From UHGV virus genome UHGV-0356621: a stretch of DNA of 43,895 nucleotides; one strand, written 5' to 3'. The stretch comes from a virus. The position numbers were made by a program, and so were the translations under genes. A model generated the notes under the pieces. It had not been told where the DNA came from and ran no database searches. It was given only the letters and a program-made list of their open reading frames with translations. Below are positions 25,274-27,623 of the stretch, piece after piece; position 1 is the first letter of the stretch, and each line of letters begins with the position of its first letter.

Positions 25274-25710
25274 GACAGGAACAGAGCGCGCTCCGCCTCC
25301 CGGCGACGTGTCAGCCCATTCAGCACCTTCCCACCAGCTTTATTCCAGCGCAGGAACTCATCGGCTGCACCAGCGTAATCACCAGCGTTGAGTTTTCGCA
25401 ATAGCGTAGATGTCGACAATGACCTAGCACCGAGGTTGTACGTGAACGACACCAGAGCATCGAATTGCCCCTGAGTCAGACCGACTTTAACCAGGCGGGA
25501 CACGTCACTTTCGTAGCTGACCAGTCCGGTTTTCAGCAGGCGATCCGCAGTTTCCTGCTTAATCGTCATCCCGGCGCGGATCGGTTTACCGTCGACAGGC
25601 TGAGTCCAGCCATAGCCGATCGTCCACACTCCGACGCTGTCCTGGTAGGCAGTGAGCTTGCAACCTTCGAACTGCTTGATCAGGGCAATGCCTTTATCAC
25701 TGGTTTGCAT
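25270..25710 (-). CDS. R: Endolysin, T4-lysozyme-like (glycoside hydrolase family 24)
   Basis: [28 protein letters not shown] matches the lysozyme catalytic motif; ATG at 25710 with GGGAG RBS (track start 25737 is TTG). Confidence 0.85.
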
Positions 25711-26017
25711 CGTCAACTCCCGCCTTTTTTGCTGCAAGTTTTTTAATCAGATTGCCGATCGAATCGGTGCCGATGTATCCAATAAAGACGCTGGCTATGT
25801 AGGCGAGGTTGCTGCTCAGGCCGATAAAGTCCAGAAAGTCACGAACGAACCAGGCAATCATCGCGCACATCAGCGCATCAATTAGCGTTTTTGTTACCGC
25901 GCCGCCGTTATAGCGACCACGCAGATACGCCATGATAAAAGCCAGCATTGCACCAATACCCTGCTCCTTGGCGGCAAGTAGCGCAGCGATGAAATCTTGT
26001 TTGTATGGCATTTTCAT
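25697..26017 (-). CDS. S: Holin, lambda S family, with dual-start MKM motif
   Basis: [40 protein letters not shown]... is close to lambda S over about 105 aa; strong GGAGGTGAGG RBS; Met1/Met3 dual start as in lambda holin/antiholin. Confidence 0.9.
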
Positions 26018-26199
26018 AGGCCTCACCTCCGATTTTCCGGATGGTGCTGTGTGTGTTTGTAGGGGAAAGGCCGTCAGACTCTGATTGCTACATGGCATCT
26101 GAAAATGATATCTGCGGCCTGCAATAAAAAAGCCCACGGCGCGGTGGGCAATAGAGGGTAGTGCGTTGAGCTTTTGCTCTTATGGTCCTGGTAGGTATT

Positions 26200-26274
26200 T
26201 GGCGGGACAGGAAGGATTCGAACCTTCGACCATTCGGTTAACAGCCGAACGCACAACCGCTGTGCTTCTGACCC
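26200..26274 (-). tRNA. tRNA-like gene, putative tRNA-Asn (anticodon GUU), 75 nt with encoded CCA
   Basis: Minus-strand cloverleaf by eye: acceptor GGGTCAG/CTGTCCC (one T:T mismatch), D stem GCAC/GTGC, anticodon stem TTCGG/CCGAA with loop CTGTTAA, T arm GAAGG-TTCGAAT-CCTTC, discriminator G, CCA. Position 8 is A rather than the usual U. Confidence 0.55.
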
Positions 26275-26277
26275 TGA

Positions 26278-26308
26278 AACGAAAAAGCCCCGCACGATGG
26301 CGGGGCTT
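26278..26308 (-). terminator. Rho-independent terminator between Q and the tRNA (candidate tR')
   Basis: Minus strand GCCCCGC-CATCGT-GCGGGGC followed by TTTTTCG. Confidence 0.65.
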
Positions 26309-26371
26309 GGAATTTATTCATGTTACACACAACAATGGCAACATATACGAATTAGTTTGCTCATTTGTTCA

Positions 26372-26869
26372 TTAAATTGCAAGCACGTTGTGTGATTTAT
26401 TTGCAATTTTCCTCACATTTTCGCGATCGTTAAACGCATTTTGAAGCGGTTGGTATAAACAGAACAATGAAGCATTGATTATTTGCTTCACCTCTCTACG
26501 GATTGTCGAGATGCTTGGGTGTTTGTACTGATTGCCGCCACGCGTCTTCATAAGGCGAGGCTTACTTACTGCATGCTGCCATGATGCAATTCGGATCTCG
26601 CTGGAGTTGCAGACGTAGTAGGCGAAGATAACCCGCCAGGCATTTTCATCCACATTCTTCAGATAGTGACGAATGACAGCATCAATGAGCATCCCGTCAT
26701 CATCACTACATACCGGTCGTGATGCTTGCTGGGGCTCGACGGTAGCCATGAATCTGGCAATCATGTTGATCATCGCTTTATCAATCTTGCCGGTCTGGCA
26801 CCATGCGCCCCACAACTGGAGCCACTGGTCTACCCATTGATGCTGGTCGTTGGTTAATTCCAGTTTCAT
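26372..26869 (-). CDS. Q: Late-gene antitermination protein Q (Phage_antitermQ-type)
   Basis: Motifs LWGAWCQTG, VCSDDDGMLID and FAYYVCN resemble the WGAW / CCDDDAM / YY signature of this Q family; located just before terminator, tRNA and lysis genes. Confidence 0.7.
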   Translation of the reverse strand: MKLELTNDQHQWVDQWLQLWGAWCQTGKIDKAMINMIARFMATVEPQQASRPVCSDDDGMLIDAVIRHYLKNVDENAWRVIFAYYVCNSSEIRIASWQHAVSKPRLMKTRGGNQYKHPSISTIRREVKQIINASLFCLYQPLQNAFNDRENVRKIANKSHNVLAI

Positions 26870-26981: not shown

Positions 26982-27623
26982 TCATGCGGACTCCTTCTGC
27001 TTTGGTCCGCGATATTCACCATACAGAGGTGCTCTTCCTCTTGGCCTGGTATGCCTGTGGGTTACTTTGGGAGAAAAAAGCGCATCCTCTACATTCATTC
27101 CATTTTTTAGTCGACGCTTGATGGATGTTTCTGATACTGAAACGCGAGGATCCCTTGACCATTCTGTGGCGGTTTTCGTTTCGCCATTAAAAGTTATGGC
27201 TGTGCGTCCTTTTTTTGTGTGCTCAGGGATATGCACTCGAGATCGCATGACATTACACGCCCTGCACAGCACCCTAAGATTTGAGTCCGCATTGTTATCA
27301 ACAACCTCATCAATGTGATCAATATGCGCGGTTTTCCATGTGACCTCCTTGCCGCATTTTTCGCATGGTGGAAGTGTTTCTCCATAACGGTCGTAAACAA
27401 CTTTTCGGTGCTCATATACGCAACCATTCGCCATTGATAGTGGGTGATCAGGAATTTTGAGCATTTGATATCCTTTCGCATTTTTATGCCTGAATTTCCC
27501 TTTACCGTTTTTTGTGAGTTCGTAGGTCCCGTAGCGCATCATTCGGAAGTAGTGCATTTGACAGATACCCTTCCCTGGGTAGTGTTTGCATTCACGATCA
27601 CAACCTTCAACTTTGCATTTCAT
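26982..27623 (-). CDS. HNH homing endonuclease
   Basis: Cys-rich N-terminus and HNH motif HIDHIDEVVDNNADSNLRVLCRACN; C-terminal DNA-binding-like segment; ATGA overlap with NinG. Confidence 0.75.
   Translation of the reverse strand: MKCKVEGCDRECKHYPGKGICQMHYFRMMRYGTYELTKNGKGKFRHKNAKGYQMLKIPDHPLSMANGCVYEHRKVVYDRYGETLPPCEKCGKEVTWKTAHIDHIDEVVDNNADSNLRVLCRACNVMRSRVHIPEHTKKGRTAITFNGETKTATEWSRDPRVSVSETSIKRRLKNGMNVEDALFSPKVTHRHTRPRGRAPLYGEYRGPKQKESA

Follow-up and report, generated by a model that had tools for sequence, protein, structure and literature searches.

A phage-lineage tRNA-Asn(GUU) gene, very probably functional, between the late terminator and the holin gene of a mosaic lambdoid phage

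The window, by which we mean the whole 43,895-bp (43.9-kb) stretch of DNA that was analyzed, represents a mosaic lambdoid phage or prophage, whose structural module resembles those of Omnitron and SEN34 and whose early region resembles those of phi80, HK225 and HK639. The minus strand is the late strand and encodes every structural and lysis ORF. On this strand, a gene for a late-gene antiterminator Q of 165 aa (26372..26869; PF06530 Phage_antitermQ, 77.1 bits, E=1.4e-21) is located directly upstream of a tRNA cassette, and its DNA is 99.3% identical to the 3' part of the gene annotated as "Q antitermination protein" in HK639. Among the protein-coding genes of the late operon, the first encodes a holin (25697..26017, minus strand; PF05106 Phage_holin_3_1, E=2e-29) with a lambda-style Met-Lys-Met dual start (MKMPYKQDF...), and a lysozyme gene (PF00959) comes next. 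Across the whole window, ARAGORN called a single tRNA, a tRNA-Asn(GUU) at 26200-26274 on the minus strand. The initial annotation had marked the span 26200-26308, which comprises this tRNA and the terminator upstream of it, and had placed the gene on the late strand (minus in window coordinates), after a terminator and between Q and the holin. This placement is borne out by the PF06530 and PF05106 neighbors and by the hairpin and UUUUU tract upstream of the gene.

We further analyzed the region between Q and the holin. A strict sigma-70 consensus scan for the late promoter P_R' found no promoter, and a relaxed scan returned only one candidate (26354..26382, minus strand), which consists of a -35 element TTGCAA (26382->26377), a 17-nt spacer and a -10 element CAAACT (26359->26354). 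It overlaps the last codons and the stop codon of Q, and its predicted start lies near 26347. In relatives with the same leader, TTGCAA is invariant and A2 and T6 of the -10 element are kept, with the variants CAAAAT and CATTAT lying nearer to the consensus; the position also agrees with that of the curated P_R' of Sf6. From this pattern we infer that the element is P_R'.

The late-leader RNA region of about 70 nt (26284..26356, minus strand), which ends in the terminator t_R', is IsrJ-like: the Rfam family isrJ (RF01393) matched it over its full length, most strongly over the terminator hairpin, with a sub-threshold score of 34.6 bits against a gathering score of 37 (E=1e-4). In the Gifsy-1 prophage, a Q-like antiterminator lies upstream of IsrJ itself. 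Beyond the tRNA and this sub-threshold match in the leader, a search of the Q-to-holin gap for Rfam families at E<=1 returned only matches to leader peptides and sRNAs at E>0.09, which were rejected as terminator-driven noise. The terminator scan identified two intrinsic terminators in the gap. The first, t_R' (26280..26308, minus strand), is formed by the hairpin AAGCCCCGC-CAUCGU-GCGGGGCUU (26308->26285; 9 bp, 7 of them G-C) followed by UUUUU, and about 5-7 nt separate its T-run from the first base of the tRNA (CGUUUCA between). The second (26126..26149, minus strand), located in the gap between the tRNA and the holin, consists of GCCCACCGCGCCGUGGGC and UUUUUU and was called at 26149->26132; it is common to Citrobacter phage Omnitron and a prophage of E. 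coli ET791.

The tRNA-Asn(GUU) gene (26200..26274, minus strand) is identified by ARAGORN, Rfam, its minimum-free-energy fold and covariation. Its RNA reads, 5' to 3', GGGUCAG-AA-GCAC-AGCGGUU-GUGC-G-UUCGG-CUGUUAA-CCGAA-UGGUC-GAAGG-UUCGAAU-CCUUC-CUGUCCC-G-CCA, and the cloverleaf is both the minimum-free-energy and the centroid structure when these 75 nt are folded alone. The Rfam tRNA model RF00005 matched the gene end to end (26274->26203) with 63.9 bits (E=1e-11 for the whole window; gathering score 29), and 4:69 is the only non-canonical pair marked in this alignment. With the same model, the four E. coli K-12 asn tRNAs each scored 72.6 bits, the Sf6 tRNA-Asn 55.3 bits, and two Aeromonas-phage tRNA-Asn 52.7 and 50.5 bits; the window's tRNA therefore falls inside the range of accepted tRNA genes. 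E. coli AsnRS recognizes the anticodon G34-U35-U36 together with the discriminator G73. Read from the sequence, this identity set is complete in the window's tRNA, with the anticodon in a CUGUUAA loop, and an encoded CCA is present. Within the core, A14, GG and the T-loop UUCGAAU are present, and A8 and U21 take the place of the usual U8 and A21. The initial annotation had proposed a putative tRNA-Asn(GUU) of 75 nt with A at position 8, one acceptor-stem mismatch and an encoded CCA, and each of these features is found in the sequence, the mismatch being U4.U69; ARAGORN, one of the predictors named there, called tRNA-Asn(gtt) with the expected fold, and the Rfam score comes with the expected cloverleaf.

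In the initial annotation, the unusual positions of this tRNA had left two readings, a functional tRNA that has diverged and a pseudo-tRNA. We compared 13 tRNA-Asn sequences (the window, Omnitron, two from AhSzq-1, six from other phages, Sf6, T5 and E. coli). In this alignment, 93.7% of the cloverleaf cells are paired, and both partners vary in 18 of 22 pairs; no value as high arose in 500 shuffles, and slid controls were 40 to 49% paired. Positions 8 and 21 co-vary perfectly, with A8/U21 in eight sequences and U8/A21 in five, and A14 is constant in all 13. The swap suggests an alternative 8-14-21 arrangement, and because the co-variation with U21 is perfect, A8 would be part of this conserved alternative and no lesion. 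U4 is invariant in all 13 sequences, where its partner is U, G or A. Among the matches listed from a wider set of related loci, U69 is kept in about 120 of 129, the 3' acceptor strand having been free in the search pattern, and U4.U69 also occurs in the tRNA-Asn of Sf6, which is otherwise divergent. As far as these alignments go, the weak 4:69 position is conserved rather than random, and A8 and U4.U69 are features of a lineage and not of decay. With A8 in place of the near-universal U8, the function of the tRNA may be reduced or altered.

To describe the distribution of this element, we searched phage records, complete E. coli genomes and IMG/VR. In HK639, the tRNA and the terminator are 100% identical to those of the window; the record annotates the terminator and leaves the tRNA unannotated, and a search of the available papers turned up no discussion of a late-region tRNA in HK639. 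The same phage carries a broken tRNA-Gly beside its tRNA-Asn. Lambdoid phages of Klebsiella, Enterobacter and Citrobacter have copies of tRNA plus terminator that are 92.7 to 98.9% identical. The Klebsiella records label these copies tRNA-Asn, among them that of phage Chronis, whose tRNA is identical to the window's. Using blastn with the tRNA plus terminator, we found copies in 79 of 5,426 complete E. coli genomes, all of them prophage copies flanked by a Q-type antiterminator and a holin, each annotated as tRNA-Asn by PGAP. The copy in E. coli 730V1 is damaged: its 3' acceptor strand is mismatched, and it has A73.

A pattern scan of IMG/VR added at least 120 further loci, giving a total of 129 compared. 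The tRNA is identical to the window's in 104 of these 129, among the matches listed, under an IMG/VR pattern that fixed 55 of 59 core positions, so that conservation is partly forced and free variation was confined to the acceptor ends and the flanks. Also among the matches listed, a GC-rich hairpin and T-tract precede the tRNA by about 7 nt in all 125 loci with sufficient upstream sequence, and the region upstream of the tRNA comprises 66 distinct 45-mers with many differing terminator stems. The Q and holin families likewise vary between loci. The combination of an invariant terminator-plus-tRNA arrangement with variable flanks therefore points to a conserved unit that moves through variable late-control regions. 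Further tRNAs (Thr-UGU, Arg-UCU, Gly-UCC) follow in about two-thirds of the loci, and tRNA-Asn is always the first gene of such multi-tRNA arrays, both among the matches listed. In the window, a mosaic junction falls inside the tRNA itself: the sequence is of HK639 type up to about position 43 and of Omnitron type straight after the CCA, and the 33-nt 3' third of the tRNA, which is common to both types, bridges the junction.

These data bear directly on the pseudo-tRNA reading, in which linkage to the late terminator and use as a homology patch in module exchange would be the only reasons for the retention of the element. The atypical A8 and the U.U mismatch would be in keeping with it, as would the mosaic junction inside the gene and the damaged relatives, namely the tRNA copy of E. 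coli 730V1 and the tRNA-Gly of HK639. However, a pseudogene should have collected random changes, and the tRNA is instead identical in most of the listed loci amid variable flanks and terminator stems. Stem changes are compensatory, including a replacement of U27-A43 by A27-U43 in nine family members among the matches listed; A8 always occurs with U21; and the Rfam score resembles that of genuine tRNAs. We consider the pseudo-tRNA reading improbable. Of the two options in the initial annotation, the divergent functional tRNA is thus favored, on its conservation within variable flanks, the covariation, the constant association of A8 with U21 and a U4.U69 pair shared with tRNAs of the Sf6/phage 21 type. 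Since A8/U21 co-variation and the conserved U4.U69 mark a stable lineage, these odd features are no ground for dismissing such genes as pseudo-tRNAs. Judged from sequence, the gene very probably encodes a functional, late-expressed tRNA.

A related question is whether the fold serves mainly as an entry site for RNase P, which would strip the leader and terminator or set the 5' end and half-life of the late mRNA, with decoding as a secondary role. The constant first place of the tRNA after t_R' and its fixed spacing of about 7 nt, among the matches listed, would suit such a processing signal. Yet a signal of this kind has no need for a GUU anticodon, G73, CCA or a full T-loop, all of which are kept across lineages 13 to 37% apart; and because the second terminator and about 110 nt precede the holin, the 5' end of the mRNA would not be set beside the coding region. 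This explanation is very improbable.

The initial annotation had raised the possibility of a host tRNA fragment, and we also considered that of a copied host tRNA gene or a remnant of an attachment site. Many prophages do use tRNA genes as integration sites and retain pieces of them; such a remnant usually matches the 3' portion of the host gene closely and adjoins the integrase. The window's tRNA, however, has its full length and all four arms, and its place is in the late operon, with about 17 kb between it and the integrase end of the window. Host asn genes were never matched in the blastn search of the 5,426 E. coli genomes with tRNA plus terminator, which returned only prophage copies. 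Because blastn did not detect the asn genes and the identity to asnT is only 64%, we rejected this reading, the least probable of all. Integration of satellites or other elements into late-region tRNAs of prophages was likewise set aside: the paper on helper-embedded PICIs concerns protein-coding late genes and chromosomal tRNAs.

The arrangement at this locus has close precedents in other lambdoid phages. Phage L carries tRNA-Asn(GUU) and a tRNA-Leu at the 5' end of its late operon, and Sf6 has Asn and Thr tRNAs there (PMC8022706); phage 21 has two tRNA genes (PMC9119081). In the Sf6 record, P_R', qut, t_R', tRNA-Asn and tRNA-Thr follow one another, all with a remark on their similarity to phage 21, and the holin comes next. 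The window shares with phages 21, Sf6 and L the succession of Q, P_R'/qut (a candidate promoter in the window), t_R', a tRNA-Asn(GUU) within a few nt, optional further tRNAs and the holin. The tRNA-Asn of Sf6 has the same GUU anticodon, G73 and acceptor stem (GGGUCAG/CUGUCCC, including U4.U69), but it is 69% identical to the window's overall, has a U8/A14/A21 core, and differs in the D, anticodon and T stems. The Sf6 terminator ends 1 nt before the tRNA, compared with about 5-7 nt in the window, and the 165-aa Q of the window is of the HK639 type, unlike those of phages 21, Sf6 and L. By these comparisons, the window's tRNA-Asn is a second lineage in the slot known from phage 21 and Sf6.

Within this second lineage, HK639, Klebsiella lambdoid phages (among them vB_Kpn_Chronis, GZ7 and ST11-VIM1phi8.1), Omnitron, Enterobacter phages and E. 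coli prophages have a tRNA plus terminator tail 92.7 to 100% identical to that of the window, at the same Q-to-holin site, although these relatives differ from it in having other Q and holin families and added tRNAs. The closest relatives outside the lambdoid phages are the tRNA-Asn of T5-like (Demerecviridae) phages of Aeromonas and Vibrio, of which the two AhSzq-1 copies are 83 to 87% identical to the window's. They share A8-A9, the GCAC/GUGC D stem, U21, the T arm and the GGGU...CCCG acceptor end; in contrast, they stand in large arrays of virulent phages with no Q-controlled terminator, and their pair 4:69 is U-G or U-A. The tRNA-Asn of T5 itself is 63% identical, and the T5 set includes a tRNA-Lys, which the window lacks. 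Stx phage 933W, the subject of Plunkett et al. in 1999, reportedly carries ileZ-argN-argO downstream of Q, classically seen as a supply for rare codons. Its tRNAs, like the window's, lie in a Q-dependent late transcript, but their isoacceptors differ and they concern rare codons rather than the common Asn codons.

Since the layout of Sf6, L and phage 21 is published and copies from Klebsiella and E. coli are annotated, the kind of feature, its place and its exact sequence are already known from phage and prophage records. On its own, the identification of the tRNA is of small consequence, its type and location being known from phages 21, Sf6 and L; it exposes an annotation gap in the HK639 record, where a tRNA identical to the window's is missing. 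What may be new is the conserved A8/U21 core with U4.U69 and, as a possibility, the use of such a tRNA against defenses that cleave tRNAs.

Our preferred explanation, to which we give a rough probability of 0.6, is that the gene is a functional tRNA-Asn(GUU) of a phage lineage, placed first in the Q-dependent late operon and serving mainly to supply Asn-tRNA according to demand. Following the lambdoid pathway, RNA polymerase would start at the constitutive P_R' and stop at t_R', so that a lysogen would make only the leader of about 70 nt and the tRNA should be largely silent there. Once modified by Q, the polymerase would pass t_R' and the second terminator, and the tRNA, at the head of a very abundant late transcript, would be its first product. 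RNase P cleavage at G1 would also strip off the leader and the terminator hairpin, and endonucleolytic cleavage followed by exonuclease trimming would expose the encoded CCA. The host AsnRS should charge the tRNA because both the GUU anticodon and G73 are present, and the charged tRNA would then join the pool decoding AAC and AAU while Asn-rich structural proteins are being formed. Insensitivity to tRNA-cleaving defenses of the host is a possible additional benefit, and the near-identical tRNA may double as a homology patch for recombination between lambdoid modules. Lysogeny dependent on the tRNA was discarded, given the location of the gene behind the late terminator and the four asn genes of the host.

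Codon usage is consistent with supply on demand. The phage-versus-host comparison of AAC and AAU, which the initial annotation had pointed to, gave 51.6 Asn per 1000 in the late ORFs against 38.0 in 69 K-12 CDS (1.36x), where the K-12 sample is a proxy that may not represent the window's host and the ORFs were called mechanically. This enrichment ties with that of Asp as the highest of all amino acids, and AAC shows the second-largest absolute excess of any codon (+9.9 per 1000, late ORFs against the K-12 sample). Large and presumably abundant late proteins favor AAC over AAU (23:6, 15:5, 16:6 and 15:2). The partner tRNAs of the relatives (Arg-UCU, Thr-UGU and Gly-UCC) read AGA, ACA and GGA, codons for which the phage shows an enrichment of 1.8 to 2.4x. 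A similar preference is found in the capsid gene of phage L, where 24 of 25 Asn codons are AAC, and supplementation of the tRNA pool has been proposed for the phage L tRNAs on this basis (PMC8022706). Because the asn tRNA gene is present in four identical copies in E. coli and Asn codons are not rare, the 1.36x excess is a modest argument for selection.

Another possibility is defense evasion. Here the phage gene would provide a reserve tRNA, insensitive to cleavage, with which Asn decoding could continue while an abortive-infection nuclease of the host, such as AriB of PARIS, destroys the host tRNA-Asn. The Lys, Thr and Asn tRNAs of T5 together neutralize PARIS; E. coli tRNA-Asn(GUU) is a secondary target of AriB, and tRNA-Lys(UUU) is the primary one and is required for T5 escape (PMC12409363). 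In tRNA-Lys, U39A abolishes cleavage by AriB, and A41C and U16C reduce it (PMC12409363). The window's tRNA has C16, C39 and G41 (U36-A-A-C39-C40-G41) where the host tRNA-Asn has U16, U39 and C41 (UAAUCC), the determinants having been tested in tRNA-Lys, and U39 is absent from all 12 aligned phage tRNA-Asn. The likeness to the Lys, Thr and Asn tRNAs of T5 lies in this point, that a phage isoacceptor of an AriB-cleaved tRNA bears non-host bases at 16, 39 and 41. A tRNA-Thr(UGU) is added in 47 of the 129 arrays, among the matches listed, and always has G39 where the host has U39. The window's tRNA is 64% identical to the host tRNA-Asn and 87% identical to that of a T5-like Aeromonas phage, and thus belongs to a phage lineage rather than to a recent capture from the host.

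Several observations weigh against this reading. The primary target has no counterpart: tRNA-Lys(UUU) occurs in none of the 129 arrays, among the matches listed, and the window carries tRNA-Asn alone. With 36% divergence from asnT, differences at the three chosen positions would arise by chance with a probability of about 5 to 15%, and the phage sequences are related to one another; because such global divergence makes these differences likely, the case from positions 16, 39 and 41 is weak. The partner tRNAs fit the supply of rare codons equally well. The anticodon loop is identical to that of the host, so the tRNA would offer no escape from nucleases that cut in the loop, for example colicin E5. 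The enteric anticodon nuclease HepS was ruled out as the selective agent, since the targets reported for it so far, Thr, Ile and Ser tRNAs, do not include Asn. Evasion as the main role is accordingly a tentative proposal that we hold to be possible but doubtful. Of the two roles, which are compatible, we rate supply as somewhat more likely.

A more far-reaching form of the evasion reading, which we regard as speculative and a shade less probable again, is that the lineage with A8/U21 and U4.U69 represents a dedicated counter-defense tRNA, unseen by AriB-like nucleases or by unidentified nucleases of ANN-codon tRNAs. The altered core, the acceptor mismatch and C16/C39/G41 could hide the tRNA from such nucleases, and its place behind t_R' could supply it exactly when late-stage sensors fire. 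If this were true, tRNA-based immune evasion would no longer be confined to large virulent phages but would include ordinary temperate lambdoid ones. The lineage offers a cheap test case, in a tractable temperate phage, for codon supply against escape from tRNA-cleaving defenses. Among the matches listed, tRNAs for ANN codons (Asn, Thr-UGU, Arg-UCU, Ser-GCU and CAU) make up 91% of the tRNAs in the arrays, a bias for which the counter-defense reading, if true, would account.

To compare the structural features of the tRNA-Asn in the window (26200-26274, minus strand), we aligned it with 12 others, from Omnitron, Aeromonas phage AhSzq-1 (two copies), six other phages, Sf6, T5 and E. coli. Positions 8 and 21 co-varied perfectly, with A8/U21 in eight phage tRNAs and U8/A21 in five, including those of E. 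coli, T5 and Sf6, and A14 was invariant across the alignment. This co-variation suggests that the 8-14-21 base triple is swapped; a limited literature search found no discussion of it.

The acceptor stem has a conserved weak spot. U4 was unchanged in 13 of the 13 tRNA-Asn compared, and a U.G or U.U pair lies within 4:69 to 6:67 in several relatives. The Sf6/phage 21-type tRNA-Asn (Sf6 locus 1566-1640) was identical to that of the window (26200-26212 and 26268-26274) in its stem GGGUCAG/CUGUCCC, the U4.U69 mismatch and G73, whereas the other 57 nt were only about 60% identical. Variants also occur in relatives. In the copy of E. coli O19:H7 730V1 (locus L007, 1517-1591), the 3' acceptor strand has been replaced and now reads ACGGCCC-A-CCA, which creates two mismatches and places A73 where G73 stood; only 67 nt are annotated as tRNA-Asn by PGAP, and this copy is probably recombinant or damaged. 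The related tRNA of Salmonella phage Arash (locus L135, 101-176) carries two U.U mismatches in its acceptor stem and is called as a tRNA-Asn whose anticodon, AUU, is unusual.

The 3' third of the gene (26200-26232) is also a mosaic junction. From Q to approximately tRNA position 43 the window is of the HK639 type; it is Omnitron-type starting at the first base past the CCA and stays so through the holin gene. The conserved tRNA-Asn seems to serve as a homology patch at which lambdoid phages exchange modules.

Among the matches listed, which comprise 129 related loci, tRNA-Asn was first in every array. It stood alone in 41 loci, and was followed by tRNA-Arg(UCU) in 33 and by tRNA-Thr(UGU) in 29; an Asn-Gly(UCC)-Thr array was found in 10, and other compositions were rarer. 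Approximately 91% of all tRNAs in these listed arrays read ANN codons, and none was a tRNA-Lys.

The tRNA-Asn of HK639 (locus L001, 1727-1801; 44363-44437 of HM208537) is 100% identical to that of the window. Both the GenBank and RefSeq records of this reference phage annotate the terminator but have a gap where the tRNA should be annotated. Directly after it lies a tRNA-Gly-like sequence (L001, ~1807-1881). Enterobacter phage BHUENT6 has a nearly identical tRNA-Gly(UCC), in which the 3' anticodon-stem strand is CCAGA; in HK639 this strand has changed to GCUGA. Because neither ARAGORN nor Rfam called the HK639 sequence, it probably represents a tRNA that has decayed. An STnc100 sRNA-family match (L001, 2144-2349), located farther downstream in the interval from Q to the lysis genes, scored above threshold (52.6 bits against 47).

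The late leader of the window, of about 70 nt and ending in the intrinsic terminator t_R' (26284-26356, minus strand; L001 1645-1717 in HK639), matched the Salmonella sRNA IsrJ (RF01393) over its full length at a sub-threshold score (34.6 bits against a gathering threshold of 37, E = 1e-4), with the match peaking over the terminator hairpin. IsrJ is found in the Gifsy-1 prophage, where a Q-like antiterminator lies upstream of it. Given this match and position, IsrJ-type sRNAs may represent late-leader transcripts that ended at the terminator, and lysogens of the window phage may produce a similar short leader RNA.

Among the neighboring genes, the holin gene (25697-26017, minus strand) begins with the dual-start motif Met-Lys-Met, as in the lambda S107/S105 type, which implies a putative holin/antiholin pair. 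A 213-aa HNH-endonuclease ORF (26982-27623, minus strand; PF01844) lies between ninG and Q, and Klebsiella phage ST11-VIM1phi8.1 likewise has an annotated HNH endonuclease just upstream of Q.
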